Virus record (IMG/VR): IMGVR_UViG_3300037419_003079
DNA length: 64,000 nt
From: a virus
Taxonomy: Duplodnaviria; Heunggongvirae; Uroviricota; Caudoviricetes
Direction: 5' to 3' (one strand)
Part shown: positions 6,914-31,087 of the stretch, piece after piece
How positions within the stretch are numbered: the stretch's first letter is position 1
Layout of the letters: the number at the start of each line of letters is the position of its first letter
Notes under the pieces: generated by a model
Seen by the model: the letters and a program-made list of their open reading frames with translations, nothing else
Told to the model about the DNA's origin: nothing
Databases searched by the model: none
Position numbers and translations under genes: made by a program

Positions 6914-6922
6914 GGGATAATC

Positions 6923-7456: not shown

Positions 7457-7608
7457 GGATAAAATTGATAAAAACTTCAAGGAAATAATAGAATATTATC
7501 GGTATGCAAAGTGACTCTACTACTCCGAAATCCGTATAAAAGAATAATAGTGCCGATGGAAGTAAAAGGAATATAATTATTTTTAAAATCATCATAATAT
7601 CTGACATA

Positions 7609-7914
7609 TTAATCGTGGTGGTGATGATGTGCTATTCCTAAAGCAAATCCAACTGCTAATGAGAATAGTCCAAAAATCACATTTTCAATATTAGGCAACA
7701 TTATTGCCCACATAGTCAACGCTTTATCTACTCCGTTTACAAACAACATACTAGTTATAGTGCTTACTCCAAATGCTTTGAACACTCCAACAGAACCTAT
7801 ACACGCTACTATTAAGTGAATAACTCCTTCAATACCATTTAATATAGCCATACTATTATACAACCATTTACCAAACTTGTTTTCAAAAAAGAAATGTTTT
7901 AATTTGTTTTTCAT
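7609..7914 (-). CDS. small membrane protein with natural C-terminal His5 tail
   Basis: 101 aa with 2-3 TM segments, ending ...GIAHHHHHD. AAGGAGG RBS. Confidence 0.6.
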   Translation of the reverse strand: MKNKLKHFFFENKFGKWLYNSMAILNGIEGVIHLIVACIGSVGVFKAFGVSTITSMLFVNGVDKALTMWAIMLPNIENVIFGLFSLAVGFALGIAHHHHHD

Positions 7915-8423: not shown

Positions 8424-8784
8424 CTAAAAGACCTTTCTTTGTAGCGTAGTCTATCATATCTTTAGTTCCTGATGACGTTCCATTCCAAAATGCTAACAGT
8501 ATGTCTGCATAATCACCCATGTCGTGATTACGCTTAATTCCTGCACCTTTATCTGTAGAACCGTCTGCTCTTTTCCATTTAGGTATAAATCTCTTTATCC
8601 TACAATCTCTTTCTCTAGCAAATCTCTCTCCTAATTTGTCAGCACCGTTAGCACCACCCGACACTATCTCCACTTTATCCCATAATTCGGGAGGGAGTTG
8701 TGAACAAATAAAGAAGGCAACCTTATCTGCTAAGTAATCGTAGTCATTAAAGTCTCGACCACCTGCAATTATGATTCTTATCAT
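8404..8784 (-). CDS. SLOG/Rossmann-fold protein (DUF2493 / YpsA-like)
   Basis: 126 aa. IIIAGGRDF ... IVSGGANGADKLGERFA motif is typical of the DprA/LOG-like SLOG clade common in phages. Confidence 0.55.
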   Translation of the reverse strand: MIRIIIAGGRDFNDYDYLADKVAFFICSQLPPELWDKVEIVSGGANGADKLGERFARERDCRIKRFIPKWKRADGSTDKGAGIKRNHDMGDYADILLAFWNGTSSGTKDMIDYATKKGLLVEVFSY

Positions 8785-8815
8785 GTCTTACCTCCTTTGC
8801 TTATCTTATATTTAT

Positions 8816-8844
8816 ATTATAGTTTCCCATAGTCCGAAAGTCAA
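8816..8844 (-). promoter_or_regulatory. sigma-A consensus promoter (TTGACT-17-TATAAT)
   Basis: Reverse complement reads CCTTGACTTTCGGACTATGGGAAACTATAATATAAATA. Confidence 0.75.
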
Positions 8845-8865
8845 GGACAAATTGTAAAAAATTTC

Positions 8866-8890
8866 AAAAAAAAGAGAGGCGTTAGCCTCC
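8866..8890 (-). terminator. rho-independent terminator after SPFH gene
   Basis: GAGGC-GTTA-GCCTC stem, with plus-strand A8 giving U8 on the minus-strand RNA. Confidence 0.6.
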
Positions 8891-8895
8891 CTCAA

Positions 8896-9837
8896 TTACT
8901 TAGTTCCTTTGATTGGTAAGTTGAACAACATATTACCATTGTCACCAATTACTAGGTTCTCAGGTAATTTAATTTTACCTTCTGCTAAACCTTTAGCTAA
9001 TGTTTCTTGAATTTCTAATTGTTTCATCTCTGCTAATGTAGCCATAGCTTGCTTCTTTTTCTGTGCTTGTAGTAATTCAGATTGTGCTTTAGCCTCATTA
9101 GTAGCGTTGGTAATTTTTTGTGCCTCTTGTTCTGCCTTAGCAGTAACTTTTGCTGTTAATGCGTTTTGTACAGCCTCGTCAGAGTAAACTAACTCACCTT
9201 TATAACCAATGTTAGAAATAGTAATACCTTGCTCTTTGAAATACTTAATGACATCTACACTAACTTCATTGATAATGTCAGCCTTGTTAGCACGAATTTC
9301 GTCCATACTACGCTTAGAGAAAGCCTCAATCATTTTCGTTTCTAAACGGTTACGAATTTCATTATCCATGATTTCAGATAAGTGCTTACCTTTGTATGTA
9401 TATAAGAACTTAGGTGTGTCCTCAGGGTGAATAGATGAAGTAGCAGAGATACCTTGTGAGAACTTAATTGAGTCACGAGATTCCGACTTAATAACTTTGT
9501 CTCCAATCCACTCACGAGTCTCAGGGGAACGATTGATTTTTACAACTGAAACAGTGTCAATGTATTTTACTTGCCAGTATCTACGACCTACTTGGATTTC
9601 TTTTTGAGGAATTTGGATTCGCTTACTAGCAACCATGTTCTTCTCTAAGAATTGAACTGAATCGAATTGTTGTTGGTCAGAAGTCTTACCTTCTAACGGT
9701 AATACGAAAGCAGTCTCATTAGCGTCAATAGTGACGAACTTAGGCTTGTTATAAGGCTTAACACAACCTGTTAATGTAGTTGTTAAAGCAATACCTACTA
9801 CTAAAGCACCAATTTTTTTACTTGTTTTCATTTGCAT
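8896..9837 (-). CDS. SPFH/band-7 (stomatin/prohibitin-like) lipoprotein
   Basis: 313 aa. Lipoprotein signal MQMKTSKKIGALVVGIALTTTLTG-C, then an SPFH core, then a coiled-coil tail (AKAEQEAQK ... ELLQAQKKKQA). Confidence 0.75.
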   Translation of the reverse strand: MQMKTSKKIGALVVGIALTTTLTGCVKPYNKPKFVTIDANETAFVLPLEGKTSDQQQFDSVQFLEKNMVASKRIQIPQKEIQVGRRYWQVKYIDTVSVVKINRSPETREWIGDKVIKSESRDSIKFSQGISATSSIHPEDTPKFLYTYKGKHLSEIMDNEIRNRLETKMIEAFSKRSMDEIRANKADIINEVSVDVIKYFKEQGITISNIGYKGELVYSDEAVQNALTAKVTAKAEQEAQKITNATNEAKAQSELLQAQKKKQAMATLAEMKQLEIQETLAKGLAEGKIKLPENLVIGDNGNMLFNLPIKGTK

Positions 9838-10081
9838 TACCTCCGAATAGTTTTTTAATATCTTTTAACATAAACAAGATGAAGATTAAGATTGAGCCAC
9901 TGAATTGAATGGTAGTTCCATATTTAGTTAGGAAGTTATATCCTGCTAAACTAGTGTTGCTATCTTGAAGTTGCATTAAAGCTACTTTGTTGTCTATTGG
10001 TGTTGAAAAAGAATTTAGTACTACATTGAGTAATGTTATAAATACTAATCCTACTACTAATCTAATGATTGTTGATTTCAT
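9818..10081 (-). CDS. small membrane protein (possible NfeD-like partner of the SPFH protein)
   Basis: 87 aa with two TM segments. Overlaps the SPFH gene start by 20 nt. Lies 11 nt downstream of the ClpP-like gene. Confidence 0.5.
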   Translation of the reverse strand: MKSTIIRLVVGLVFITLLNVVLNSFSTPIDNKVALMQLQDSNTSLAGYNFLTKYGTTIQFSGSILIFILFMLKDIKKLFGGNANENK

Positions 10082-10092
10082 TGTTCTCCTCC

Positions 10093-10713
10093 TTATTCAA
10101 TTGCGAAATTTCCTGCTTGAACATCTTCTCTTTTCAGACGAGTAATAGCAATCTTAGATTCTACTACACCTAGCTTAATAGCCTCGTCAGTATCAAAATA
10201 CCAATCTTTGACTGTATCTTGCATATTAGCAATCTCGTCTGCACGAATATTAGTTCTTTCTAAGACAAATTTATTAACCTTGCTTCTCATAAACTTCTCT
10301 ACAGCCTCCATGCGTCTTTGGTGTTCTGTGAAAGTACCACCTTGACCATATGAAATGTCATGGAACATAAACACTGTATGTTCGTATGAATAACGCTTAT
10401 GTCCTGCTAGTAAAATTGGGATACCCATACTAGCTACCATTCCTAATCCAATAGTATGTACTGGTGTCTTACTATTTCTGATGATGTCCATCAATCCTAG
10501 ACCTGATGTTACAGAACCACCGGGAGTATTGATAGTCAAGAAGATAGGGAATTTACTTCTGTCGTGATTGTTATAAGTAGCCTTCTCTTTTGCGTCATCA
10601 ATTCGATTGATTTCTACAATCTTCTCGATAATGGCTTTTGTAGAGGTATTACTAACTTCTTCTGATAAAAATAAGTTACGGTTGATTTCGTTAACTGGAA
10701 CCTGTACTGTCAT
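10093..10713 (-). CDS. ClpP-like serine protease (paralog 2), first gene of the protease / small-membrane-protein / SPFH operon
   Basis: 206 aa. TINTPGGSVTSGLGLMD ... MVASMG (Ser) ... MFHD (His). ClpP/NfeD-N (clan SK) organisation. Confidence 0.8.
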   Translation of the reverse strand: MTVQVPVNEINRNLFLSEEVSNTSTKAIIEKIVEINRIDDAKEKATYNNHDRSKFPIFLTINTPGGSVTSGLGLMDIIRNSKTPVHTIGLGMVASMGIPILLAGHKRYSYEHTVFMFHDISYGQGGTFTEHQRRMEAVEKFMRSKVNKFVLERTNIRADEIANMQDTVKDWYFDTDEAIKLGVVESKIAITRLKREDVQAGNFAIE

Positions 10714-10745
10714 TTCAATTACCTCCTCGTTTATCTTATATTTGT

Positions 10746-10775
10746 ATTATAACTTGCTTGGATACAAAAAGTCAA
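10746..10775 (-). promoter_or_regulatory. sigma-A promoter (TTGACT-18-TATAAT)
   Basis: Reverse complement reads CCTTGACTTTTTGTATCCAAGCAAGTTATAATAC. Confidence 0.7.
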
Positions 10776-10810
10776 GGATAAATCAGAAAACTTTTTTAAT
10801 TTATATCCCT

Positions 10811-10840
10811 AAAAAAAATCGACTAGGAAATGTCCTAGTC
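10811..10840 (-). terminator. rho-independent terminator downstream of the tRNA
   Basis: GACTAGGA-CATTT-CCTAGTC stem followed by U8 on the minus-strand RNA. Confidence 0.75.
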
Positions 10841-10868
10841 TTTAAAATCGTGAAACGTTAAAGGGGTG

Positions 10869-10942
10869 TGGCACGGATTGTAAGAATCGAACTCACATCA
10901 AAGGTTTTGGAGACCTTTGTTTTACCATTAAACTAAATCCGC
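10869..10942 (-). tRNA. tRNA-Trp (anticodon CCA), 74 nt with encoded CCA
   Basis: Hand-folded from the sequence: acceptor GCGGATT/AATCCGT (G1-U72), D arm GTTT-AATGGTA-AAAC, anticodon arm AAGGT-CTCCAAA-ACCTT (U33, C34C35A36, A37), 4-nt variable loop, T arm GTGAG-TTCGATT-CTTAC, discriminator G, CCA. Confidence 0.75.
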
Positions 10943-11463
10943 ATAAGAGGGAGTGCATTAGCACTCTTGGCTCACCAACTGTTTTTATAGAGAAACAGTA
11001 AACGTATTGAGAGAGGTTTTCCGTGCCTCTCCCATTTAATCGGAGGTAGGTTGCGTGGGGAAAATCAACAAAACCCAACGCACGTTTAAGGGTATCGTTT
11101 AAAAGCACGCTTTCCTAGTTATATTATATAGCGAGTGCTAGGTCACTACCTCAGATACCCGTGAGGCAAGCATGTTTATACTCTACACTTCAAGAGATAC
11201 GTTGTAGCGATTCGAGAGGAATGACCATATTGCCGTTTATCTAGGATAAGTCCGTGTAATACAGGCAAACTACCTTGAATCGCATAATTACAGTGCTAGG
11301 CTCATACCAAGAACCAACCTAGCTTGTATTCTCCTCAACTTTTACTTAACTCGTGTCAGGTGTATCGCCTTAGATTAAGTTTTATTGGAGATTACGGTTG
11401 TCCGTTTTCAAACATAGACCTGATACAGGAGGTACGGACGGTAAAGTTTCATGTATTGTGATT
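10943..11463 (-). ncRNA. GC-rich ORF-free structured region upstream of tRNA-Trp (candidate pre-tRNA leader, additional non-canonical tRNAs, or large structured ncRNA)
   Basis: 520 nt with no convincing ORF and clearly higher GC than the flanks. Multiple long stem-loops (e.g. GTCCGT...ACGGAC at 11399-11438, GCGTGGGG...CCCAACGC at 11052-11086, GAGTGC-ATTA-GCACTC at 10951-10966, GGGTATC...GATACCC at 11090-11160). It is co-transcribed between gene 11464..11787 and the terminator at 10811-10840. Confidence 0.4.
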
Positions 11464-11787
11464 TTACTTCTTGTTAAAATAAAGAACAGTTGCATAGTAA
11501 GTAGTTGTTCCGGGAGCGATTGCATATACTTCTTCGCCTTTTTCTAAGTATAATTCGATTTCTCTAGAATTATTTCCTGCATTAATGCTCTCCACTGGAA
11601 TAAGCATTGAATTATTGTTGATGTTCTGTAGTAATTCCGTGTAATTAGGATTTTGGAAGTCGATATTAAGGATTTCTTTTCCTGCAATTCTTACAGGTTG
11701 ATTATCAACGAAGATTTTGACATATCCTCTGTCTCCAACTGCTATAACACTAGGCGTTGCATTTACTGGTTTCACTTCTACTCTCAT
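11464..11787 (-). CDS. hypothetical protein (107 aa)
   Basis: ORF with tandem promoters upstream. Confidence 0.55.
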   Translation of the reverse strand: MRVEVKPVNATPSVIAVGDRGYVKIFVDNQPVRIAGKEILNIDFQNPNYTELLQNINNNSMLIPVESINAGNNSREIELYLEKGEEVYAIAPGTTTYYATVLYFNKK

Positions 11788-11884
11788 TAAACATCTCTCC
11801 TTATTATATCTAATATAAAACGTTGCCCTCTATAAGAGGGATTGGGATATACCCTTACTGATATGTTTTTTATCAGTAATATTA

Positions 11885-11957
11885 TTATGTATTCTTATAT
11901 ATTAAGTTGTCAAGGTATCTTATAAATATATTATAACACAAGACCTTTTAAAAGTCA
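11885..11957 (-). promoter_or_regulatory. tandem sigma-A promoters (TTGACT-17-TATAAT and TTGACA-17-ACATAA)
   Basis: Reverse complement reads CCCTTGACTTTTAAAAGGTCTTGTGTTATAATATATTTATAAGATACCTTGACAACTTAATATATAAGAATACATAAT. Confidence 0.65.
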
Positions 11958-11976
11958 AGGGTTATTACGTTAGAAA

Positions 11977-12300
11977 GGAGGTTTAGCGTTGCCTCCTTCC
12001 ATGATTATTGACATATCATAGTTAGTGTCTGTATTCTATTCCATGATATACACGCCAATGTGGTAGTAACCAACACTTCGATTGGTCTTTGTTGAGAGTA
12101 GAACTATATGGTGAGAGCCTAAACCCTTCATCTCTCTGCACAATGCCCGCTACCGTCACCTTCCATTGTGTTTCCTAGTTCGTAGCTACTGAACTAATCG
12201 CCACACCTTGCGAGTATGACTTCCCTTTCGGGCATAACAGGACTAATCCCCTTCACCTGTCTGTGTCGTCCCCTTTCTATCTTTCCTATGACGACTTTCC
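11977..12300 (-). ncRNA. candidate ~300-nt GC-rich non-coding RNA transcribed from promoter 12314-12342 and ending at hairpin 11977-11996
   Basis: No ORF. GC well above local background. Perfect TTGACT-17-TATAAT promoter directly upstream on the minus strand. GGAGG-N10-CCTCC hairpin at the 3' side. Internal long hairpin TAGTTC-AGTAGCTAC-GAACTA. Confidence 0.35.
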
Positions 12301-12313
12301 TAATTACTATGTA

Positions 12314-12342
12314 ATTATAACATACTTATAATATAAAGTCAA
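12314..12342 (-). promoter_or_regulatory. sigma-A consensus promoter (TTGACT-17-TATAAT) with no ORF downstream for ~300 nt
   Basis: Reverse complement reads CCCTTGACTTTATATTATAAGTATGTTATAATTAC. Confidence 0.7.
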
Positions 12343-12348
12343 GGGTAA

Positions 12349-12633
12349 TTATCTTACGCTCTGACCTGAATGAATTTTTCTAATAGCCTCTAGTGCCTCA
12401 ATATTCTGAGGTTGATTACGCATAATCCAAAGCCTTAATTCATTATATTTTAATGCGAATTTATGTTCTAACTCTCTGTCTAGTTGCTCTTTCCAATAAT
12501 CTGCTACTGCTCTAGTTGTAAAGAAAATGTCGTGCATGGATTTGTCAGATAAATGTATGCTTTCATTTGTTTGAATGTGGTAGGCAATCTTTCTTGCGTC
12601 ATATTCCACTCTAGGGTCATACTTTCTTTTCAT
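12349..12633 (-). CDS. hypothetical protein (94 aa; start refined to ATG with AAGGAGG RBS)
   Basis: The ORF-track ORF was trimmed to the internal ATG at 12633, which has a strong RBS. No recognisable motif. Confidence 0.5.
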   Translation of the reverse strand: MKRKYDPRVEYDARKIAYHIQTNESIHLSDKSMHDIFFTTRAVADYWKEQLDRELEHKFALKYNELRLWIMRNQPQNIEALEAIRKIHSGQSVR

Positions 12634-12646
12634 GCTACATTCCTCC

Positions 12647-13165
12647 TTAGATTTTGTAGTACTTCTTAATGGATTCAATAAGTGAGTCTAAGTCAGGAGA
12701 TATACTACCTCCTGAATCTTTGATAGTTCCAACTACATAAAGGTTACGGTATGGAAATTGATTTTCTACAGCGTCCTGAGACAAAGCATGTAATTTTTTC
12801 ATGTTATCTCTACCTTGTTGGCGAATATCTGTAAATAATGCAAATATAGGTCTAGGTTTAGCACCTGTTCTTAACTGATAGTTAATATCAAAACCTGCAA
12901 ACTTACCAATCTCACATGCAACTCCTGAATCTATCTCAACTCCATCAATAACTGCTATCAAAAATTGAGAGTCTAGTAGATATTCATCGTCTCCTCTTGA
13001 GATAGTTAAACTATTAGCATATCCTGTTTTATCATTTAGTGCCTCGTTTTCTTGTGGAACATATAGTTCTAACTCAGGAAACACCAATCTTAGTTCGTTT
13101 GCTATGATAGTATTATATAGATAGTCTGCCTCACTGAATAGTCCGTTTGCTAGGTACGCCTTCAT
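12647..13165 (-). CDS. nucleoside 2-deoxyribosyltransferase-family protein (NDT/Rcl-like)
   Basis: 172 aa. N-terminus MKAYLANGLFSEADYLYN... with a conserved acidic pocket (DSGVACEIG) characteristic of NDT/DNPH1-like enzymes. Confidence 0.6.
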   Translation of the reverse strand: MKAYLANGLFSEADYLYNTIIANELRLVFPELELYVPQENEALNDKTGYANSLTISRGDDEYLLDSQFLIAVIDGVEIDSGVACEIGKFAGFDINYQLRTGAKPRPIFALFTDIRQQGRDNMKKLHALSQDAVENQFPYRNLYVVGTIKDSGGSISPDLDSLIESIKKYYKI

Positions 13166-13422
13166 TAGTCACTACCTTCTTCTGCTACATCTTCTTTCAC
13201 TACTTCTACATTTTCTTCTAGAACGATTTCTTCTTCTTTGTTTAATCGAAGAATAAATTTATCTTTATTACTCTTGCTATAATCAACTTCAAGTCCTTCT
13301 AAGTAGTTCTTTTCTAGTTGATGATTAGTTATGTGAATTGGTGCTTTGCCATTCTTTGATAGTCGTCTTATACACTCAATCAATAATAAAGTTAAGACTG
13401 CCTCTTTTGATGTTTCAGCCAT
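13165..13422 (-). CDS. hypothetical acidic protein (85 aa)
   Basis: ORF whose start ATGA overlaps the previous gene's stop. Confidence 0.5.
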   Translation of the reverse strand: MAETSKEAVLTLLLIECIRRLSKNGKAPIHITNHQLEKNYLEGLEVDYSKSNKDKFILRLNKEEEIVLEENVEVVKEDVAEEGSD

Positions 13423-13549
13423 TCATACCTTCCTCCATTTCTAAATATCTTTTAAGTTCTGATGGGTTAAATTCTTCTGAGATTCGCTTGTTAATTTCAG
13501 CCATCTCAACGTATCCTTGTGCCATTTGGTCTTTATCTATTTTTTTCAT
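13415..13549 (-). CDS. small hypothetical protein (44 aa)
   Basis: Not in the ORF track. AAGGAGATGG RBS 5 nt before the ATG at 13549. Its TGA overlaps the ATG of the next gene (translational coupling). Confidence 0.4.
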   Translation of the reverse strand: MKKIDKDQMAQGYVEMAEINKRISEEFNPSELKRYLEMEEGMNG

Positions 13550-13593
13550 TCCAACCATCTCCTTAAATTATATTTATATTATAACTTCCCTGT

Positions 13594-13619
13594 AAAAATT
13601 TGAGGGGGCGAACCCCCTC
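13594..13619 (-). terminator. hairpin terminator/attenuator between promoter 13657-13685 and first gene of its operon
   Basis: GAGGGGG-CGAA-CCCCCTC stem followed by AAAUUUUUA on the minus-strand RNA. It sits ~35 nt downstream of the predicted start site. Confidence 0.45.
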
Positions 13620-13656
13620 TGAAAGAGTAGAAATTATGTATTGATTAACTATTTAT

Positions 13657-13685
13657 ATTATACTTGAATTATAACTAAAAGTCAA
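13657..13685 (-). promoter_or_regulatory. sigma-A consensus promoter (TTGACT-17-TATAAT)
   Basis: Reverse complement reads CCTTGACTTTTAGTTATAATTCAAGTATAATATAAATAG. Confidence 0.75.
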
Positions 13686-13695
13686 GGACAAATTC

Positions 13696-14421
13696 TCAAC
13701 CTTTACCAATTCGCATAATGCTTACTTTAACATGCTTTTGTCTTCCGAACTGTTTAGCAATGCTTTCGTTTCTTACAAGAACGTCTAACTTATGTCCTCT
13801 AATAGCACCACCTTTATCTAACGCTTGTGCGTAGAATGTTTCTCCACGAGCCTCAATCTTGATAATGGAGTACATAGGAATCACATTAGGGTCTACTGCT
13901 ACAACCCTCATTCCATCTACTTTAGTGGTATTTGCTACATTGTATCCTGTCGATGTCATTCCAGTGCAACCTTCTGAACAAAAGGCTGTGTAGGCTGTCG
14001 CCTCCATATAAAGAACTCTCTTAGCTTGTTGTTGTGATTTCACCACTTTGGTTTTTCTGATATTGTTCTTTTGCCTTACCGAGGGAGATTCACTTCCATC
14101 TTTATATGTTTCAATCTTCTTCTTTAGGTTTGCGTTCTCTTTTGTAAGATTAGCAATCTTGCTGTTCATTCGTTGTGCTTCTTGTAAATGTTTTTGTTTT
14201 TCTAAATCTTTCTTTTGAAGGTCAACTTTCGCTTGGAAAAGCCTATCCTCAAGACTATCAATCTGCATGTTTAAATCTACTCTCTCTTTTTGCATATCTC
14301 TCGCATTGGTCTCGGAAATTATTGCTCCTGCTCCGAATGTTGTCAGACCTGCTAATAAAATAGCTACGGATAAGATATTCATAGACTTAGAAAAGAATTT
14401 TTTCTCCTCCATTACTATCAT
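13696..14421 (-). CDS. membrane-anchored 3D-domain protein (MltA/YabE/YuiC-like cell-wall-active domain)
   Basis: 241 aa with an N-terminal TM segment, a coiled coil, and a C-terminal 3D domain (YMEATAYTAF ... VVAVDPNVIP ... LDKGGAIRGHKLDVL). Confidence 0.65.
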   Translation of the reverse strand: MIVMEEKKFFSKSMNILSVAILLAGLTTFGAGAIISETNARDMQKERVDLNMQIDSLEDRLFQAKVDLQKKDLEKQKHLQEAQRMNSKIANLTKENANLKKKIETYKDGSESPSVRQKNNIRKTKVVKSQQQAKRVLYMEATAYTAFCSEGCTGMTSTGYNVANTTKVDGMRVVAVDPNVIPMYSIIKIEARGETFYAQALDKGGAIRGHKLDVLVRNESIAKQFGRQKHVKVSIMRIGKG

Positions 14422-14443
14422 CTCCTTTGCATATTATAATTGT

Positions 14444-14472
14444 ATTATACACGCCCTTCCATATCTTGTCAA
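14444..14472 (-). promoter_or_regulatory. sigma-A consensus promoter (TTGACA-17-TATAAT)
   Basis: Reverse complement reads CCCCTTGACAAGATATGGAAGGGCGTGTATAATACAATTATAAT. Confidence 0.75.
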
Positions 14473-14486
14473 GGGGTGTCCCTGAG

Positions 14487-14516
14487 TAAAATAAAAGAGA
14501 GGCTAAATGCCCCTCT
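14487..14516 (-). terminator. weak terminator after MBL-fold gene
   Basis: AGAGG-N9-CCTCT stem followed by a U-rich tract (CUUUUAUUUUAC) on the minus-strand RNA. Confidence 0.3.
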
Positions 14517-15294
14517 ATTTAACTTCAAAACTGTAAGTCTCTCTTGGTAGTGCAATTCTCATAAATGAATCTTTAACCTCTAAGTAATGTTCTTCTAGGT
14601 CATCTCCGTAGTGCATTATGAAAATATTTCGTTTATACTTGTTTGGCAATGATTTAAGTTCTTCAAGTGAAGCGTGCACCTTACCATCATAATCAAACAT
14701 TTGGCAATCATGGAAAATAGCTTGTGCACCGTCTTTAACTGCCATCTTAATAAATTCTTCGTTAAACAATGAATCAGATGTGTAAACTATGTAATCGTGT
14801 TCTGAGATAATTAAGCCATATGACTTTTTCTTAGGGATATGCTCAGTGCTATAGACTGAAATCATGCAATCGTTAAAGAAGAAGTATTGGTCTCTATCGT
14901 TAACAATTTCATATGTAAAGTAATCATCAAATTTCATTTGTCTATCTAATTCGCCTTCTACCATAGTTCCTTTAAGGACTTTATTCCACAAATCATTTTT
15001 TAAATCTACATGAGGGAAAATAAGGTGTGGCTTTTTCTTTAAAACATATCGTCCAAAGAATCCTGCCTCCTCTAGTCCGTATACATGGTCTCCGTGGAGG
15101 TGAGTAATAAAAATAGCGTCAATATCTGACCATGAGAACTCTGATTTAAATAAATCATCAGGTGTTGTTCTTCCACAGTCAATCATCATATTCTTTTTTA
15201 CTTCTCCATTTGTTACAGTTAACACTGCACTGTTATTGCCAAAGTTCTTAGCAAATGCACTTCCTGTTCCTAGAAAAGTTAAGTCTATTTTCAT
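14515..15294 (-). CDS. metallo-beta-lactamase-fold hydrolase (RNase Z / cyclic-nucleotide phosphodiesterase-like; Apyc1-like candidate)
   Basis: 259 aa. HxHxDH motif (ITHLHGDHVYG) plus downstream His/Asp ligands. Last gene of its operon. Confidence 0.8.
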   Translation of the reverse strand: MKIDLTFLGTGSAFAKNFGNNSAVLTVTNGEVKKNMMIDCGRTTPDDLFKSEFSWSDIDAIFITHLHGDHVYGLEEAGFFGRYVLKKKPHLIFPHVDLKNDLWNKVLKGTMVEGELDRQMKFDDYFTYEIVNDRDQYFFFNDCMISVYSTEHIPKKKSYGLIISEHDYIVYTSDSLFNEEFIKMAVKDGAQAIFHDCQMFDYDGKVHASLEELKSLPNKYKRNIFIMHYGDDLEEHYLEVKDSFMRIALPRETYSFEVK

Positions 15295-15809
15295 AGGTCT
15301 ATCCTCTCCTCTAACACTTCGTTGTACATTACCAATAAATCAATAATACCATCTAGGTCATCTAAGGAGTTCATTAAGATTTCTAACTCCCAAAACATGT
15401 AGTAACTGCTTTTATCGTCTTTTTCTCTATGGTTAAAGACTTGTTTTACTTGGATACTAACTCTTTCGCTATGATGTGCAAACTTCAACAACATCTTAAC
15501 AAGTTCTATCCAATCAGAACGCTTATGTGGAACAACTTTGATATAAAGGTCTTCACCTATATTTTTAGCTGACATAACTTTCACATCAGCAATAGCAAAT
15601 AGTTCTCCAACAATCTTGTTTTTATAACTTAAAAATTCTAGTGATTCTCGACATTCTTCTTCTGTCATAACCTCTTTTACAAATCCATATCCTTCGCAAT
15701 ATCCACAATCAGTCCAATTTGAGTCTAGGAAGTCTTGTTTCACCTTCCTAAACCCACCTTTTCCATGACATACTGGACACGCTACATTGTAAGGTGTTAC
15801 AGTTTCCAT
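15291..15809 (-). CDS. zinc-finger protein (172 aa; start refined to METVTPYN with AAGGAGG RBS)
   Basis: CPVCHGKGG ... CGYCEGYG treble-clef-like Cys pairs. Overlaps the MBL gene by 4 nt. Confidence 0.5.
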   Translation of the reverse strand: METVTPYNVACPVCHGKGGFRKVKQDFLDSNWTDCGYCEGYGFVKEVMTEEECRESLEFLSYKNKIVGELFAIADVKVMSAKNIGEDLYIKVVPHKRSDWIELVKMLLKFAHHSERVSIQVKQVFNHREKDDKSSYYMFWELEILMNSLDDLDGIIDLLVMYNEVLEERIDL

Positions 15810-15823
15810 GATAATCCTCCTTT

Positions 15824-16513
15824 TTATTTGCCATACATTAATCGTTGCCAAGCACCGTCAGAGAATCCTGCTCGTTGCATTTGACCAACTGTTCTGTCTA
15901 CCGCATAAGGGATTCGATAAAAAGTTACAATGTCTTTTTCAACATCATACACTGCATATGAGGCTCTAGGGTCTCCATCACGAGGAGAACCAACTGAGCC
16001 AACATTGATAATTGCTCTTTTGCCATCTAAGTGCGTAGAGTAATATGACATATGTAAGGGTGATTTAATAAACTCTGCTTTGTTGTATGAATTTACAAAA
16101 CTTATAGATGGTGCGAACATATTTCCTACAAACAACATTTCAAAGTCTCCTAAAAATCCTTGTGGTGTTTCTCTTGAGAATACAATTTCATCTAACCTAT
16201 GACTATCTACTAAGTTTTTCAAATATGATACTTCTTTTCCTAATTTTTCTCTTGTCCAATCTACTGCAAATCTTGATTGAGGAGTCAATCCAAAGCTTGC
16301 GTCCTCGTCAACTACTGCTAAGTCATGGTCTCCCATAACTATGTAATGAAACTCCTCTAATGTTAGAGTTAATGTCTCATTTGGTTTCGGTCCATTACCA
16401 ACAATGTTGCCTAGGTGAACTTTCATGTCCACTCCGACACTGTTCATATGTTCCAATACTGATTGCAGTGCATATAGATTGGAATGTGTATCTGATACAA
16501 TTCCAATTTTCAT
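15824..16513 (-). CDS. calcineurin-like metallophosphoesterase
   Basis: 229 aa. N-terminus MKIGIVSDTHSN ... GD(H)D ... GN(H/I)VG motifs of the MPP superfamily. Confidence 0.8.
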   Translation of the reverse strand: MKIGIVSDTHSNLYALQSVLEHMNSVGVDMKVHLGNIVGNGPKPNETLTLTLEEFHYIVMGDHDLAVVDEDASFGLTPQSRFAVDWTREKLGKEVSYLKNLVDSHRLDEIVFSRETPQGFLGDFEMLFVGNMFAPSISFVNSYNKAEFIKSPLHMSYYSTHLDGKRAIINVGSVGSPRDGDPRASYAVYDVEKDIVTFYRIPYAVDRTVGQMQRAGFSDGAWQRLMYGK

Positions 16514-16737
16514 TTTTTAATCTTCCTCTCGACTATTTTTTTAACGATTGGGTAGTGGTCTCCGTCTGTGAAGTATTTGACTCGTTTATCGCATTGGTCA
16601 CACTCTGAAATGAAAAACATTTCATTATTTTCTACTCCATAATCCTTTGTGATTGGCTTTAAATTATAAAGGCACTCAGGGCATTTTGGTTTCTTACCAT
16701 CTTTGAAAAACACAGCGTCTAGTACTTCTTTAGCCAT
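16510..16737 (-). CDS. small zinc-ribbon protein (75 aa)
   Basis: CPECLYN ... CDQCDKR pairs of Cys. Overlaps both neighbours by 4 and 1 nt. Confidence 0.5.
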   Translation of the reverse strand: MAKEVLDAVFFKDGKKPKCPECLYNLKPITKDYGVENNEMFFISECDQCDKRVKYFTDGDHYPIVKKIVERKIKK

Positions 16738-17309
16738 TATTGACCACCTACAATCTCAATTATTTCTTTCTCAATTTCTGATAGTGTCTTTCTAGTTGTG
16801 TCTACATGATGAAATTTAACATTGTCATATGTATGTTTTATAGTGAAGTCTTGCATAATAGTTTTATATAGGTTTTGCTGTTTAATTGTTTCTGCTACAC
16901 TTTCTTCTGCTTTTCCAAAAGGAACTTTGTCTCTTAGTAGTCGTCCTTTTAGTTCTTCTTCGTCTTCGATAGTAAAGAATATAACGTCTACTTGCATAGC
17001 CATTCTTTTTAAGTTAAAAACTAGATGTCGATAGTCATTAGAAAAGTCATAGTCTTTATATAATTCCGAGAAAACTCTCTCAGAGAAAAAGAATCTATCA
17101 AAGACAAAAGTTGAATCATGATATTTCATTGTTTTTAGAAATTCGTACCAGTTCCAGTAGTACTCTGCTATTTTTTCGTGTCCTTCTGCTCCATCGTCAT
17201 GAAAACCAGTTGGATTAATCAAAGTAATTTCTGAAACTTTTTCTCGAATTGCTCTTGCAATAGTAGATTTTCCAGTTCCACGACCACCTTCAAGAATTAT
17301 AAGTCTCAT
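16737..17309 (-). CDS. P-loop nucleotide/polynucleotide kinase (dNMP-kinase or Pnk-kinase-like)
   Basis: 190 aa. Walker A motif EGGRGTGKST near the N-terminus, with lid-like basic residues. It is the first gene of a kinase / Zn-ribbon / MPP / Zn-finger / MBL operon. Confidence 0.65.
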   Translation of the reverse strand: MRLIILEGGRGTGKSTIARAIREKVSEITLINPTGFHDDGAEGHEKIAEYYWNWYEFLKTMKYHDSTFVFDRFFFSERVFSELYKDYDFSNDYRHLVFNLKRMAMQVDVIFFTIEDEEELKGRLLRDKVPFGKAEESVAETIKQQNLYKTIMQDFTIKHTYDNVKFHHVDTTRKTLSEIEKEIIEIVGGQ

Positions 17310-17343: not shown

Positions 17344-17372
17344 ATTATAAACTAAAAACTAAAAAAAGTCAA
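17344..17372 (-). promoter_or_regulatory. sigma-A consensus promoter (TTGACT-17-TATAAT)
   Basis: Reverse complement reads CCTTGACTTTTTTTAGTTTTTAGTTTATAATATAAATG. Confidence 0.75.
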
Positions 17373-17380
17373 GGTCTATC

Positions 17381-17409
17381 TTGATTTAGTTGTTAGTATA
17401 TATTATAAT
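17381..17409 (+). promoter_or_regulatory. divergent sigma-A promoter (TTGATT-17-TATAAT) for the S1-domain gene
   Basis: CTTGATTTAGTTGTTAGTATATATTATAATAGC. Back-to-back with the minus-strand promoter. Confidence 0.7.
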
Positions 17410-17465
17410 AGCAACAAGTAGCGAAGGTTGCTTGTCCCACAAACTAAATGAGGAGGAATGTCACA

Positions 17466-18392
17466 ATGACAATTACCTACGAAAGAGGAAAATGGATTGA
17501 ACTAGGAAAACAGTTGGAGGTAGTAGTTGCCAAAAATAATGAACTTCCTAAGCCAAGAAAAAAATCTTTAACTGAGTTATTTAAAGACTTTGCTAGAGAA
17601 CATAACACAACTTATAGTTCTGCTCAATTTTATTATTACAACGATATTAAGCCAAAGGTTGATAGAAATGAATTGGTTTACAACCCTAGGTCATATGATG
17701 ATGAACTAAACAACTATATGAACAACACTCAAGTAGACCCTATATTTAGAAACACAAAAAACGTTAGAAATGTTCACAAGATTGGAACTATCGTACAAGG
17801 AGAAATCGTTGGTCTAACAGACTTTGGTGCTTTTCTTAGAACAGAACAAGGATTTGAAGGACTTATACACATATCTCAAATTACAGAAAAAGATTTCGTT
17901 ACGCTTCCTGAGGACTATTTTTATATTGGTGAAAAAGTTAAAGCTAAAGTCATGAGATATGACGGAAACAAACTTAATTTATCAACCAAGGCAACAGGAG
18001 GAAAAGAAAAGATAAATCCTGTTTTCAAAGATTTAAGTTTAAAGAAAACTGAAATACAAGAAACTAAGAAAGTAACTCCGAAAGTAATACAAAAACCAAA
18101 AGAAGTTGTACATGAGACCAAAGTAGAACCTAAAGTTATAGAGGACAATACAAAAGTAGTTCCAATTAGTACATCTAACAATGATAAAGATAACATAATC
18201 AACTTTATTAAGAGATATTCTGATAATAACGTATCTCAAAAGGCACTTGGAGATTTAGACGACTTAATCTCTGAATATGGAGTTTTCCAAACAACTATAT
18301 CACTAATGGAAACTGTTCGTGATTTAGATATTTCTTCTTTCATTACCGAGATGACAAAAGAAAGGCTTGAAGGTGAATATCTTAGGCAATAA
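17466..18392 (+). CDS. S1 RNA-binding-domain protein with Lys-rich C-terminal extension
   Basis: Start refined to the ATG at 17466 (GAGGAGGA RBS). S1/OB core GTIVQGEIVGLTDFGAFLRT ... GLIHISQI ... GEKVKAKV. Confidence 0.75.
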   Translation: MTITYERGKWIELGKQLEVVVAKNNELPKPRKKSLTELFKDFAREHNTTYSSAQFYYYNDIKPKVDRNELVYNPRSYDDELNNYMNNTQVDPIFRNTKNVRNVHKIGTIVQGEIVGLTDFGAFLRTEQGFEGLIHISQITEKDFVTLPEDYFYIGEKVKAKVMRYDGNKLNLSTKATGGKEKINPVFKDLSLKKTEIQETKKVTPKVIQKPKEVVHETKVEPKVIEDNTKVVPISTSNNDKDNIINFIKRYSDNNVSQKALGDLDDLISEYGVFQTTISLMETVRDLDISSFITEMTKERLEGEYLRQ

Positions 18393-18668: not shown

Positions 18669-18860
18669 CTAAATTTATAATACACTTATATTTTAACATA
18701 GTCAAGAGTATCTGCAAAAAAACATGCTTTGAATCGTAAATATTTAATAAAAAGAATTATTTAGTATTTATATATCTTTTAGTAATTACTAAGTAATTAT
18801 ATTATATTTATTTATTATTTATTAATATATATATTTATATATATAACTGTCCAAAGTTGA
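18669..18860. repeat. AT-rich region with (TA)n/TATTTA simple repeats and a 6-bp inverted repeat ACTGTC-N7-GACAGT
   Basis: More than 85% A+T over ~190 bp. ATATATATTTATATATATAACTGTCCAAAGTTGACAGTCC lies immediately upstream of the sigma-factor gene. Confidence 0.6.
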
Positions 18861-18901: not shown

Positions 18902-19558
18902 ATGTCAAGAATTGAAAAAGAAGAACATTTAAAAGGACTTATAAATATTGTGCAAAACTCTGATAATGGATATGAGAAAGAAAACGCCATGATGGAGGTA
19001 CTTAATAAATTTGAACCTTTCAGAAGGTCTTTAACGAAGAAATTCGCAGGAAAAGGAGTAGACTTCGATGATGTGTGTCAAGTAATTGATTTAAAGCTAA
19101 TTGAAGCTATGTATGATTATGATGAAAAACTAGATTCATCTGCTATTAGGCATATCACATCTAAGGCAAGGAATGGAGTATTTAATTTCTACAAGAAAGA
19201 AATGAACTACTTTAAAGAAGACCGTAAAACTATTAGCATTGACCAATCATTTTACAATATTTCTCACAACGGATACAAATTAACTATTGATGATTCATCT
19301 TGGATTGAGGCTTATTTTGAAGAAGAATTTGACGAAGATAAAATCATAGATAAGATTATGTTAGAACAAGGATTGACAAATTTAACAGAACATCAAAGAG
19401 AATTAATACATATGTACTATTGGGCAGATATGACCCAAGAGGAGATTGCAGAAGAACTACAGATACACCAAGCAAATGTATCAAGGGCAACAAAAAGAGG
19501 AGTCAAGAGACTCAAAGAGAATCTTAACCCCTTGGGTGAGCAGTCCGATAAGCTTTAG
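18902..19558 (+). CDS. phage-encoded sigma-70-family sigma factor (sporulation/ECF-like size)
   Basis: Start refined to the ATG at 18902 (AGGAGG RBS). Region-4 HTH LTEHQRELIHMYYWADMTQEEIAEELQIHQANVSRATKRGVKRLKE, with a region-2-like helix upstream. Confidence 0.75.
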   Translation: MSRIEKEEHLKGLINIVQNSDNGYEKENAMMEVLNKFEPFRRSLTKKFAGKGVDFDDVCQVIDLKLIEAMYDYDEKLDSSAIRHITSKARNGVFNFYKKEMNYFKEDRKTISIDQSFYNISHNGYKLTIDDSSWIEAYFEEEFDEDKIIDKIMLEQGLTNLTEHQRELIHMYYWADMTQEEIAEELQIHQANVSRATKRGVKRLKENLNPLGEQSDKL

Positions 19559-20393
19559 ACATCTGCTCATTAGCAATAGTTGTATAAACGGTAGTTGTGT
19601 TTATGTCTGCATGACCTAGTAGTTCTTGTATATATCTAATATCAGCACCGTTAGCATGTAAGTGAGTAGCGTAACTATGTCTAAACATGTGTGGGTGAAC
19701 TTCACCATCTGAATACTTATAAACTATTCTACGAGCGTTTCTAGTCGTCATAGGAAGACTAGGGGTTCTTCTACTAGCAAACACATAAGGACTGTTGTAG
19801 TTCCTAGTTTCAAGGTGTCTTGCTATAGCATTTAGAGCAGGATTATTAATAGGTACTAGTCGTTCCTTATTTCCTTTTCCAAGCAACTTAACAGTTCTAT
19901 TTTCTAAGTCTATGTCGTCAACTTTAATAATCACTAATTCACCTACACGACAACCTACTCCATACAATGTTTCCATTATCGCTCTATCTTGCTCATTATC
20001 AATGGAGTCCAATATTCTAGAAGTTTCATTTACTGTCATTACATTAGGTAGTTTCTTGGCTATCTTGGCATTATCAATATCTAGAGCGTCATTATGCTCT
20101 ATCACTCCTTCTTTCTTTAAAAATGTCATGAAAGAGCGAATAGCAGATAATTTTCGTCTTCTAGTTGTAGGTGCTAAAGAATTAATGTCGGCAAGGAACT
20201 TTCTGATTGTTGATTTATTAAGTTGCTCTATATTCACAATAGAACTAGATTCAAAGTATTGATTTAAATCTTTTTTATAACTGATTACCGTGTTATTAGA
20301 TAAATTCTTTTCAACACTCATGTAGTTTAAGAAATCATTTAAATAGTTATCCATATTTATCAGCCTCCGATTTGTTTTGTTCCTATAACACAA
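19524..20393 (-). CDS. tyrosine recombinase, XerC/XerD-like (no N-terminal arm-binding domain)
   Basis: 289 aa. C-terminal catalytic box HMFRHSYATHLHANGADIRYIQELLGHADINTTTVYT (R..H..R..Y). Convergent with, and overlapping by 35 nt, the sigma-factor gene. Confidence 0.9.
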   Translation of the reverse strand: MCYRNKTNRRLINMDNYLNDFLNYMSVEKNLSNNTVISYKKDLNQYFESSSIVNIEQLNKSTIRKFLADINSLAPTTRRRKLSAIRSFMTFLKKEGVIEHNDALDIDNAKIAKKLPNVMTVNETSRILDSIDNEQDRAIMETLYGVGCRVGELVIIKVDDIDLENRTVKLLGKGNKERLVPINNPALNAIARHLETRNYNSPYVFASRRTPSLPMTTRNARRIVYKYSDGEVHPHMFRHSYATHLHANGADIRYIQELLGHADINTTTVYTTIANEQMSKAYRTAHPRG

Positions 20394-20422
20394 AGTTTAC
20401 CAATTAATTCCTATAATGTCAA
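20393..20422 (-). promoter_or_regulatory. probable sigma-A promoter for the recombinase (TTGACA-17-TAAACT)
   Basis: Reverse complement reads TCCCTTGACATTATAGGAATTAATTGGTAAACT. Shares the GTCAAGG motif of the early promoters. Confidence 0.45.
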
Positions 20423-20493
20423 GGGAGAATAGCATACTTTTCCATGTATTAATAAGCCTTAGTATTAGATAGTACCCCTATCGGCAGTTCTCT

Positions 20494-20552
20494 TTTACAT
20501 TTTCCCCTATTTTTGGCTATTGGCTATTTGGCTACCCCCCCCCTGCCTTATA
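20494..20552. repeat. GGCTAT direct repeats (x3), C9 homopolymer and inverted ATAGCC copy upstream of terS
   Basis: TTTTTGGCTATTGGCTATTTGGCTACCCCCCCCTGCCTTATAGCCATTC. Confidence 0.6.
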
Positions 20553-20582
20553 GCCATTCTTTTTAAAAGGAGAGTGATGTAG

Positions 20583-21257
20583 ATGGCAAGAAGAAAACTC
20601 AATGATGAAGAATTAGAGAAAATTTCAAATAAAGAGTGGAAAAAAACGCCTATATTTACAAGTGATGAAAAATTAGCAAATAGAGCCAAAAATTTAACAG
20701 GTCCAAAGACCGTGGAAGGGAAGAAGAAGTCATTGGCAAATTTACAAGTTGGTAGAAACAGTTCGGATTCTCCTACCAATCTTAGGCATGGTGGGTATAT
20801 CCGTAAGATTTTAAATGAAGATGAACAAGAGTACTATTTCATGCGTATGGAGATTTACTATAAGGATTACGATATTAATGGTTCGGCTGATGAAATTATA
20901 TTACATCAGGTTTTGATGGAGGAAGTTATCTTAATGCGTTTATACACTAAGCAAGCAAACAATCCTTCAACAGATATAGAAAGACCATTAAATGATTGTA
21001 CTCGTAGATTGCGTACAGCACTAGAAGACCTAGGTGCATTAAGAAAGCAACGATTAAAACAAGACGATAAAGTAGCAAGTCTGAATATCGCTACAATTGC
21101 TCAAGCATTTGCTCGTGAATTAAATCAAGGAAGTGTAGAGCAAGAACTACTCAAATTAAGACAAGAGGAAGAAGAATTTGAGAAGTCAAGAACAAAAGAC
21201 ATTAACGATAGATATGTAATCGTTGAGGAAGATGAAGATGGAGAACAATCAGAGTAG
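20583..21257 (+). CDS. putative terminase small subunit
   Basis: 224 aa. Located immediately upstream of, and overlapping, the large terminase gene. GGAGAG RBS. Assigned by position; no diagnostic motif. Confidence 0.5.
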   Translation: MARRKLNDEELEKISNKEWKKTPIFTSDEKLANRAKNLTGPKTVEGKKKSLANLQVGRNSSDSPTNLRHGGYIRKILNEDEQEYYFMRMEIYYKDYDINGSADEIILHQVLMEEVILMRLYTKQANNPSTDIERPLNDCTRRLRTALEDLGALRKQRLKQDDKVASLNIATIAQAFARELNQGSVEQELLKLRQEEEEFEKSRTKDINDRYVIVEEDEDGEQSE

Positions 21258-22905
21258 TATAAATATGAGCGTTCAGAACAACGCAGTAGAGCAGGGTGCT
21301 AATGTAAACACAGAACATATGGAGATGATGAAAATCTTCGTAGATAACCCTGATATTGCGGCTAGTAGATTACTAGTTCGTAATGACAAGCCATTGAGAC
21401 TAGCTGTTCACCAACGTTTGATTATTAGAGGACTATGGAAACATCAGTTTAATCTATTAATCCTTACTCGTGGTGGAGGAAAAACATTCTTACTGGCTCT
21501 TTATTGCGTTCTTAAAACAATGCTATTTCCTCGTGAAAAAGCAGTGGTAGCGTCTTCTTCCTATCGTCAAGCACAATTCACATTTGACGAGATAATAAAG
21601 TTTTATGAGGAATCACCTTTACTACGACAGGCTACTACAAAGCCTCCTACGAAAGGTCCTAACTCATGTGAAATGCACTTAGAAAATGGTTCTAAGATTA
21701 TATGTTATCCGTTGGGTGACGGTCAAAAGATTCGTGGTGCTCGTGCTAATACATTGGTTATGGACGAGGTAGCACAGATACCTTCCGATATTATCAACCT
21801 AGTAATCCTACCTATGATGAACACACGACAAGACCCGTTCGATACATCAGGTCGTAAAAACCATTTAGTTATGGCTAGTTCTGCGTATTTCCAATTTAAC
21901 CATCTATATGATAAGTATCTATCATACAAAGATAGGGGTAATCCTAGACATGAAGATTATGACGATAACTACGGTCTGCATGTTTTTTCTGTATACGACA
22001 TGCCTGAGGGTTGGATGGACCCTGCAATTATCAAGGAGGCAAGACAACAACTATCTGAGATACAGTTCCAAATGGAGTACGAATGTTTATTCCCTGCTGA
22101 GTCAGATGGATTCTTCCCTGCTAAATTAATGTATGGTGCTAGAAAACAATCTGTATTATTAGAGTTAGAAGGTAGTAAAGGTTCAGAATATGTATTCGGA
22201 ATTGACCCTGCTCGAACAGGAGATAATTTCGCATTGGTAGTTTTAAAACTAGGTAACCCAAATAAAATAGTAGCGTCTTACTCATTAAATAGAAATACAT
22301 TCCCTGAAATGCACGAGTTTATAAGAAGAAAAATTCGTGAATATAATAAAAATGGTGGAAAAGTAGTTAGGTTACATATGGATAATGGTGGTGGAGGACA
22401 CACTATTAAAGATTTACTAGCAGAAGAGTATGCTTGGTTTGACGGAGAGGCAGGGGTATGGAGAACTGACCCTGCTATTATTGACATGGACGATGAAGAA
22501 CAACAATACCTAACAGGTGAGCGAATACTTAAAATGCAAGTATTTAGTGCACCATCTATCAACTCAATGAACTATGACCTAAGAGCAGACCTAGAGAAAA
22601 ACAGAGTAATACTACCAACTCAACCACCTACTGAGGAAGGTGATATAGGTATGCTTTATAGAGATATTTTTGATGAAATAGAGGATATGATTAAAGAGAC
22701 TATGACTATTGTTCCAACACCTTTAAAATCAGGAATGTTGCATTTTGACACACCAAAACAAAAAATGAAGAAGGATAGATACTCTGCTTTCTTATTATGT
22801 TGTCAAGGTGCTAGAGAATTGCAGAGAGATTGGGGAGGTCCACCAGTTAAGACATTAGCTAGGGGCTTTGCTAGGAACTCATTCATGTCGGGTAGTGGAC
22901 TATAA
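21223..22905 (+). CDS. terminase large subunit
   Basis: 560 aa. Walker A-like LTRGGGKT, Walker B DEVAQIP, and a C-terminal RNase-H-like nuclease region. Confidence 0.85.
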   Translation: MRKMKMENNQSSINMSVQNNAVEQGANVNTEHMEMMKIFVDNPDIAASRLLVRNDKPLRLAVHQRLIIRGLWKHQFNLLILTRGGGKTFLLALYCVLKTMLFPREKAVVASSSYRQAQFTFDEIIKFYEESPLLRQATTKPPTKGPNSCEMHLENGSKIICYPLGDGQKIRGARANTLVMDEVAQIPSDIINLVILPMMNTRQDPFDTSGRKNHLVMASSAYFQFNHLYDKYLSYKDRGNPRHEDYDDNYGLHVFSVYDMPEGWMDPAIIKEARQQLSEIQFQMEYECLFPAESDGFFPAKLMYGARKQSVLLELEGSKGSEYVFGIDPARTGDNFALVVLKLGNPNKIVASYSLNRNTFPEMHEFIRRKIREYNKNGGKVVRLHMDNGGGGHTIKDLLAEEYAWFDGEAGVWRTDPAIIDMDDEEQQYLTGERILKMQVFSAPSINSMNYDLRADLEKNRVILPTQPPTEEGDIGMLYRDIFDEIEDMIKETMTIVPTPLKSGMLHFDTPKQKMKKDRYSAFLLCCQGARELQRDWGGPPVKTLARGFARNSFMSGSGL

Positions 22906-31056: not shown

Positions 31057-31087
31057 GGCTATGTTTCACGACATAGCCTTTCTAATT
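31057..31087 (+). terminator. terminator/hairpin
   Basis: GGCTATG-TTTCACGA-CATAGCC followed by TTTCTAATT. Confidence 0.5.

Follow-up and report, generated by a model that had tools for sequence, protein, structure and literature searches.

Gene neighbourhood of the putative small terminase gene

The element under study lies in the window, the whole 64,000-nucleotide stretch of phage DNA that was analysed, in the interval between the start of a XerC/D-like tyrosine recombinase gene on the minus strand and the start of a 224-aa open reading frame on the + strand, where the preliminary description had placed it. This reading frame stands in the position of the small terminase gene, immediately ahead of TerL, and the name terS is used for it here by synteny only. 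The features of the region are, along the window:

17448-18392, + strand: S1-domain protein gene, further upstream, with a 94-aa ORF and the sigma factor gene
stop at 19558, + strand: sigma factor gene (regions 2 and 4), upstream of the recombinase gene
19524-20393, minus strand: XerC/D-like tyrosine recombinase gene, upstream of the element
20422-20394, minus strand: sigma-70-type promoter of the recombinase gene, TTGACA-N17-TAAACT (TTGACA at 20422-20417)
20380-20388 and 20408-20416: direct repeats TTCCTATAA, within the spacer of the recombinase promoter and immediately downstream of it
20431-20464, + strand: candidate late (terS-operon) promoter, AGCATA (20431-20436)-N17-AAGCCTTAGTA (20454-20464)
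20493-20509, + strand: pyrimidine-rich box TTTTACATTTTCCCCTA (consensus CCCCTTTTACATTCCCC) in the presumed leader
20513-20519, 20520-20526 and 20528-20534, + strand: direct repeats, exact TTGGCTA units
20521-20532, + strand: 5' arm of the hairpin, TGGCTATTTGGC, an inverted repeat with covariation that spans direct repeats 2 and 3
20533-20544, + strand: apical loop TACCCCCCCCCT
20535-20543, + strand: C9 run, inside the apical loop
20545-20556, + strand: 3' arm of the hairpin, GCCTTATAGCCA, containing the inverted ATAGCC
20551-20556, + strand: inverted TAGCCA, ending 27 nt 5' of the ATG at 20583
20557-20564, + strand: T-tract TTCTTTTT (U-tract in RNA), abutting the 3' end of the stem
20566-20578, + strand: strong, extended Shine-Dalgarno sequence (SD) AAAGGAGAGTGAT, ahead of the ATG at 20583
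20583-21257, + strand: putative terS, 224 aa, overlapping the start of TerL
21223/21265-22905, + strand: TerL (Terminase_6N), followed by portal and roughly 40 kb of + strand late genes

The protein encoded at 20583-21257 gave no significant match in Pfam, NCBIfam, the PHROGs terminase families or PDB sequences, its AlphaFold model (pLDDT 73.5) gave no Foldseek match with E < 0.4, and gp32 of phage Staley, which occupies the equivalent position, had no detectable similarity to it. It is a helical protein with a long C-terminal helix and a highly conserved N-terminal stretch of 60 residues, and it may represent an undescribed TerS family.

Upstream of the recombinase gene, the annotated TTG start of the sigma factor ORF (18857) overlaps a TTGACA-N17-TATAAA sequence, and the real start of the gene is therefore probably the ATG at 18902. 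The AT-rich region ahead of the sigma gene (18677-18856) carries tandem repeats with periods of 29 and 10 at 18755-18845, together with a minus-strand sigma-70-type promoter (TTGACT-N17-TATTAT, 18705-18677) directed antisense into the S1 and 94-aa ORF genes. In the gap between the left arm and the S1 gene (17368-17447), divergent sigma-70-type promoters were read by eye, TTGACT-N17-TATAAT on the minus strand and TTGATT-N17-TATAAT on the + strand. A link between the S1-domain protein and the hairpin was considered, as the gene lies beside the hairpin in eight loci and is absent from three hairpin-less lineages, but the locus L025 has the hairpin without the gene, and no link is claimed because the association is phylogenetically confounded.

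Among GenBank phages, the Bacillus siphophages Slash, Staley, Stahl and Basilisk come closest, their TerL proteins being ~29% identical, and a megablast search of GenBank phages with 19500-22900 returned no nucleotide match. Exact copies of window proteins were found on metagenome contigs of up to 166 kb and related proteins on contigs of ~110-175 kb, including ~160-kb contigs of Paenibacillus isolates and of a Psychrobacillus MAG. In the related contig L035 the genome runs on past the left end of the window; a search of IMG/VR with a left-end protein found no relatives. The left arm (1-17300) and L035 encode thymidylate synthase, DHFR, thymidine kinase, two ClpP-like proteases, a Band_7 protein and a SASP, which is a spore DNA-binding protein, and the left arm also holds a tRNA gene on the minus strand (10872-10942). 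This gene set and the sizes of the related contigs point to a large phage, perhaps an episomal one, of spore-forming hosts.

Two observations concern other genes of the group. TerL was called as two or more pieces in L038 (3156-5086), L041 (3168-5118) and L049 (1662-2675); in the first two, pieces of ~170 aa and ~377 aa lie ~300 nt apart, and in L049 the second ORF has a faint LAGLIDADG match. These observations suggest that TerL has been interrupted in these relatives, though not in the window, by an intron or the insertion of a homing endonuclease. Inside a 2850-aa gene of the window (51755-60307), long arrays of 30/60/90-nt tandem repeats occupy 52100-53470, and the product is probably a repetitive tail-fibre or central-fibre protein.

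A conserved stem-loop and T-tract ahead of terS

The element had been described as a protein-binding array of three GGCTAT direct repeats, a C9 tract and an inverted ATAGCC. The C9 tract and the inverted copy ahead of the putative terS read exactly as quoted, and three TTGGCTA units are present, although the hexamers within them are GGCTAT, GGCTAT and GGCTAC, the third being one base off. With 9 copies against 8.3 expected, the TTGGCTA 7-mer shows no enrichment in the window. The arrangement GGCTAT-N4-30-ATAGCC occurs three times in the window against none in 100 shuffles, two of the three lying at the 20513-20556 element, where the longest inverted repeat is formed by TGGCTATTTGGC and GCCTTATAGCCA; these arms bracket the C tract, with TACCCCCCCCCT between them, and the right arm is followed by TTCTTTTT, then AAAAGGAGAGTGATG, and then the ATG. 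The C9 tract is the only run of at least eight C in the 64 kb (0.21 expected from shuffles), and runs of at least four C number 17 on the + strand of the window, three of them within ~75 nt (20475-20478, 20504-20507 and 20535-20543). No further copy of the motif or of the upstream pyrimidine box was found within the window, and an exact search of IMG/VR for the C9 core gave no match. A short hairpin after a 707-aa gene (31057-31078; GGCTATG-TTTCACGA-CATAGCC, followed by TTTCTAATT) shares its stem words with the terS hairpin, perhaps by coincidence; unrelated to that hairpin, it probably serves as an ordinary terminator.

The region was compared across a set of 17 distinct sequences, the window included, from contigs of IMG/VR, JGI, Logan and NCBI. 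The TerS-position proteins of the relatives in this hairpin set are 58-87% identical to that of the window, and their TerL proteins 80-85% where compared. A hairpin folds at the homologous spot in all 17, with a dG of -11 to -25 kcal/mol (-14.6 kcal/mol in the window), and in 16 of them a T-rich tail with four invariant T columns follows directly on its 3' side, the T-tract of L038 being degenerate. In a structure-aware alignment of 15 of the sequences, 92.6% of the cells formed pairs as against 28-46% when the partner was slid by one to three columns, four pairs were changed on both sides, and one U-A pair of the stem was U-G in six sequences; covariation was also found in MAFFT-based alignments. 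Compensatory change is exemplified by the GGCTAT/ATAGCC pairing, which has become AGCTAT/ATAGCT in L016 and GACTAT/ATAGTC in L038. The two arms, 5' and 3', of four relatives read:

L001: GGCTATTTAGA / TCTAAATAGCC
L004: TTGGCTATTA / TAATAGCCAA
L016: AGCTATTTAGAAT / ATTCTAAATAGCT
L038: TTGACTATTAGGC / GCTTGATAGTCAA

In L025, L049 and L045 the stem sequences are unrelated and the architecture is the same, each hairpin being directly followed by T5-T7. The direct repeats vary in number, with a single left-side GGCTAT word in most relatives, two in L002, L014 and L003, and a third, partial copy only in the window, L013 and L046. The extra upstream TTGGCTA (20513-20519) is confined to the window, L013 and L046 (as TTGGCT), is absent from the other 14 sequences, and reads in the alignment as a lineage-specific, recent tandem duplication outside the conserved stem, while repeats 2 and 3 make up the 5' arm of a two-tier stem. 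The notion of a protein-binding array is thus not upheld: direct repeats number one to three among the relatives, and what has been kept instead is the inverted repeat, its compensated pairing and the T-tract downstream. The conserved feature is a stem-loop with its T-tract and SD, not a direct-repeat array.

The G-U pairs, the one-sided T-tract and the greater stability of the + strand fold over the minus strand fold in 14 of the 17 sequences all indicate that the element is specific to the + strand, and this strand specificity favours an RNA over a DNA palindrome. A covariance model found exactly one high-scoring copy per genome, on the + strand and upstream of the putative terS. The distance between the arms is 12 nt in the window and ranges from 4 to 16 nt among the relatives. 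Since several relatives at 54-66% TerS identity (L042/L015, L028, L030 and L026) are without the hairpin, it is not essential to the gene arrangement. Rfam searches returned only noise for 20300-20700 and only one tRNA for the whole window, and the covariance model of the RsaE/RoxS family (Rfam RF01820) gave no match at E <= 10 in 20300-20700. The motif, absent from Rfam, is a new, unnamed conserved leader element of a familiar kind, one that could be described as a new cis-regulatory RNA family.

The loop of the hairpin carries a C4-C9 run in 12 of the 17 sequences and no C run in the other five. As a run of at least four C is kept in L025 and L049, whose stems have been replaced by sequences unrelated to that of the window, the C-richness of the loop appears to be under selection. 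The length of the tract is less constant: it is C9 in L033, as in the window, and C8, C7, C5, C4 or none among the relatives. The sequence L032, which comes from another sample, differs from the window at a single place in 4019 bases, having C7 in place of C9, and the earlier suggestion that the tract is prone to slippage is borne out by this difference between otherwise identical assemblies of one phage and by the variation among relatives; the C7/C9 difference could be true slippage or a homopolymer assembly error. The C-rich loop is probably a recognition or tuning feature whose homopolymer length drifts by slippage. Its conservation suggests an added function for it, in the recognition of a factor, in the tuning of termination efficiency, or as a base-pairing seed of the kind found in RoxS.

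The candidate late promoter, the presumed leader and the probable terminator

A late promoter very probably lies within this intergenic region. The preliminary description had offered the repeats themselves as one; the best candidate is instead the bipartite motif at 20431-20464, ~50 bp upstream of them. The motif is kept in near relatives as AGCATA-N17-AAGnnT(T/A)AGTA with a constant 17-nt spacer (16 in two), is unique in the window, and in distant relatives without the hairpin (e.g. L028, L030) lies directly before the SD at a promoter-like distance. Region 4 of the phage sigma factor is closest to SigF/SigG/SigB, an affinity with which the GCATA of the motif, the -35 type read by SigF/SigG, is in accord. 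We regard the motif as a candidate phage-sigma-type late promoter. No sigma-70-type promoter was found on the + strand in 20394-20582. A promoter built from the repeats, with its -35 in the left arm and its -10 in the right, is poorly supported, the TTGGCT-TATAGC spacing being 15 nt in the window, 13 in L032 and variable in relatives. L002 and L003 have a sigma-28-like GCCGATAG in their right arm, which was rejected as a promoter because the other clades do not share it.

Transcription from 20431-20464 would place the hairpin ~55 nt into a leader of ~115 nt, and late transcription would then have to cross it. The same leader would contain the pyrimidine-rich box at 20493-20509, which among the non-coding blocks is second only to the hairpin in conservation, and the extended SD, which is kept in relatives as AAAGGAG-N-GTGAT and is complementary to the 3' end of Bacillus 16S rRNA. 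An outer helix between the two was considered, in which the box would act as an anti-SD, and the minimum-free-energy folds of all 11 first relatives did pair the box, (U)UACAUUCCCC, with the SD region. The helix was dropped because its duplex energies did not surpass those of composition-preserving shuffles of the 5' segment (mean z 0.0, 16 sequences); the pairing of box and SD is a compositional effect.

The reading that we favour, with some reserve, is that the packaging/late operon carries in its 5' leader a strand-specific RNA stem-loop, the hairpin with its U-tract, which acts as an attenuator of the intrinsic-terminator type. Transcription would begin ~100 nt upstream, at the phage-sigma-type promoter, and RNA polymerase would meet the intrinsic-terminator-like hairpin before it reached terS. 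A part of the transcripts would stop there and yield a short, C-rich leader RNA, and the terS-TerL-portal late genes would be expressed only by read-through, whether leaky or assisted by a phage factor. The same hairpin would also block + strand read-through from the sigma gene; unchecked, such transcription would pass through the recombinase gene in antisense orientation and enter terS.

Two properties of an intrinsic terminator, a stable + strand stem-loop and a U-rich tract right after the stem, were found here, and another, a short loop of ~3-8 nt, was not: the loop is 12 nt in the window and 11-16 nt in nine of the 17 sequences, and the other clear terminators of this phage have loops of 3-7 nt. 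The large loops, the degenerate T-tract of L038 and the existence of hairpin-less lineages weaken a simple terminator reading, and against the attenuator it may also be said that an inverted repeat bound by a dimeric protein can co-vary as well. Staley, whose TerL is 30% identical, has a terminator annotated by its authors at the same position, before the gene that precedes TerL.

The closest analogue at the level of the system is pR'-tR' (6S RNA) of lambda, in which a promoter and a short terminated leader stand ahead of the late operon. As there, a stem-loop with a U-tract lies between a late promoter, putative here, and the first late/packaging gene, and read-through would be needed. The element differs from it in that the apical loop is large (11-16 nt in most) and C-rich, the host belongs to the Bacillales, and a phage sigma factor probably recognises the promoter, which, like the termination, we infer. 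No antiterminator of the Q type was identified in this phage.

A second comparison is with staphylococcal phages, where a factor-independent terminator stands between terS and rinA, the gene of the late activator (PMC3152322); RinA, ArpU, LtrC and Alt are described as late activators of Gram-positive phages (PMC3753634). As in phi11 and 80alpha, a gene for a sigma-like regulator lies just upstream of terS with a terminator between them and a late promoter in the terS-proximal intergenic region, both putative here (PMC3152322). Here, in contrast, a divergently oriented recombinase gene separates the sigma gene from terS, the candidate promoter lies upstream and not downstream of the terminator-like hairpin, and the regulator has both regions 2 and 4 of a full sigma factor.

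The phi11 arrangement is the model for an alternative in which the hairpin does no more than end read-through from the sigma gene, the late promoter overlaps or follows it with a start ~20-25 nt before the ATG, and the hairpin lies outside the late mRNA. In phi11 and 80alpha the RinA-dependent 5' end, beyond the rinA-terS terminator, is indeed 23-24 nt upstream of the terS ATG (PMC3152322). In the window, a + strand scan from the sigma stop (19558) to the hairpin found no other terminator-like hairpin, and as the first such structure downstream of the sigma gene it should stop read-through from that gene. No conserved, promoter-like elements of fixed spacing were found over or after the hairpin, however, and the conserved bipartite motif of fixed spacing sits upstream instead. 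The distance between the arms, 4-16 nt, and the change from C9 to C7 within one phage would alter any spacing across the hairpin, the three lineages with unrelated stems have no common sequence over or after it, and a start in the T-tract would fall on pyrimidines. We consider it unlikely that the hairpin acts as an insulator only.

Another alternative gives the terminated transcript a function of its own, as a trans-acting C-rich RNA of ~100 nt that extends from the 20431-20464 promoter to the hairpin and pairs through its UCCCC boxes and loop with G-rich SDs of host or phage mRNAs, terS being expressed by read-through. The element resembles RoxS/RsaE in having unpaired C-rich motifs (UCCCC and a C-rich loop) and a terminator hairpin within ~100 nt, and RoxS pairs with G-rich targets through four C-rich regions (PMC5419742). 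The crowding of three C4+ runs into ~75 nt, when the whole 64-kb + strand has 17, and the C-rich loops of L025 and L049 on replaced stems are in its favour. The element does not match RoxS/RsaE in sequence or structure, nor any other Rfam family, and it stands in cis before a gene; the C run of the loop is missing from five of the 17 sequences, and G5 runs at the SD position are rare in the window, with one SD-like case at 36949. Such an RNA, which seems to us distinctly unlikely, would in any event use the same terminator and so largely overlaps the attenuator reading.

The attenuator itself could be given a more specific form, of similarly low probability in our estimate: the C-rich loop and the upstream UCCCC box might constitute a site like nut, put or conAn that loads a phage antitermination factor for the ~42-kb late operon, or the terminated leader might be a C-rich sRNA that silences G-rich ribosome-binding sites. 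If the nut-like form were true, slippage of the C tract, as between C7 and C9 in one phage population, would be a heritable rheostat of late-gene and packaging expression.

Proposed packaging and recombination sites, and late-gene control in this phage group

A cos or pac site was also among the readings proposed for the repeats, with the terminase binding the TTGGCTA copies and the symmetric arms and cutting in or near the C tract. The spot directly upstream of the packaging genes is a classical one for such a site. The inverted repeat and the G+C-rich core that it flanks, set in an A+T-rich genome, are reminiscent of the cos sites of Firmicutes phages. Like cosN/cosB of lambda and the pac sites of SPP1 and P1, the element adjoins the gene in the small-terminase position and combines repeats and an inverted repeat around a distinctive core. 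In a distant relative (L029, TerS 57% identical) the contig starts within the ribosome-binding site, 16 nt ahead of the terS ATG; this is the only contig end near the element, and it is probably an assembly break.

Neither the core nor the boxes that such a site would require are conserved. The C tract is absent from L003, L004 and L040, whose TerS-position protein and TerL are ~80% identical to those of the window, and from L038 (compared by its TerS-position protein); over the set a cleavage core would be C9, C8, C7, C5, C4 or nothing, between arms 4-16 nt apart, and the boxes of a pac site would number one to three TTGGCTA copies without a constant arrangement. The putative TerS hardly varies in its N-terminal part, yet stems have been swapped for unrelated sequence, and the strand asymmetry (G-U pairs and a one-sided T-tract) has no rationale at the level of DNA. 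All recovered contigs with at least 150 nt upstream of terS read through the site, and in contigs of 100-160 kb the element is found at many different internal positions. The genome of Basilisk, the best-characterised relative (TerL ~29%), is bounded by short exact terminal repeats far from the terminase genes, its base 1 lying ~12.7 kb upstream of TerL (PMC5000459). Unlike the lambda, SPP1 and P1 sites, the element has no conserved core, spacing or repeat number and is strand-asymmetric. The missing C tract in close relatives, the strand asymmetry and the distant terminal repeats of the nearest characterised phages thus argue against a terminase recognition site, a reading that we hold to be improbable.

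The proposal that the inverted repeat is the core or crossover site of the adjacent XerC/D-like recombinase draws on its closeness to that gene and is very improbable, since Xer-type sites have arms of ~11 bp around a fixed spacer of 6-8 bp, the spacer here is 12 nt and 4-16 nt in close relatives, and the two TTCCTATAA copies at 20380-20416, beside the recombinase promoter, make a better and more Xer-like candidate. These repeats are kept in near relatives as two copies of GTTCC(T/C)ATAA. At the same spot, the distant relatives L026, L015/L042 and L030 have an inverted repeat, TTTCTGATAA-N6-8-TTATCAGAAA, which from its form looks like a Xer/dif-type site or an operator.

The analysis removes a tempting cos/pac annotation as unsupported and gives this group of uncultured Bacillales phages a concrete map of a control region, made up of a candidate phage-sigma promoter, a conserved leader hairpin with its C-rich loop, a U-tract and a strong ribosome-binding site. 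If the hairpin is a regulated terminator, the region would be a Gram-positive counterpart of the pR'-tR' checkpoint in lambda, with the hypervariable C tract of the loop as an unusual tuning device.
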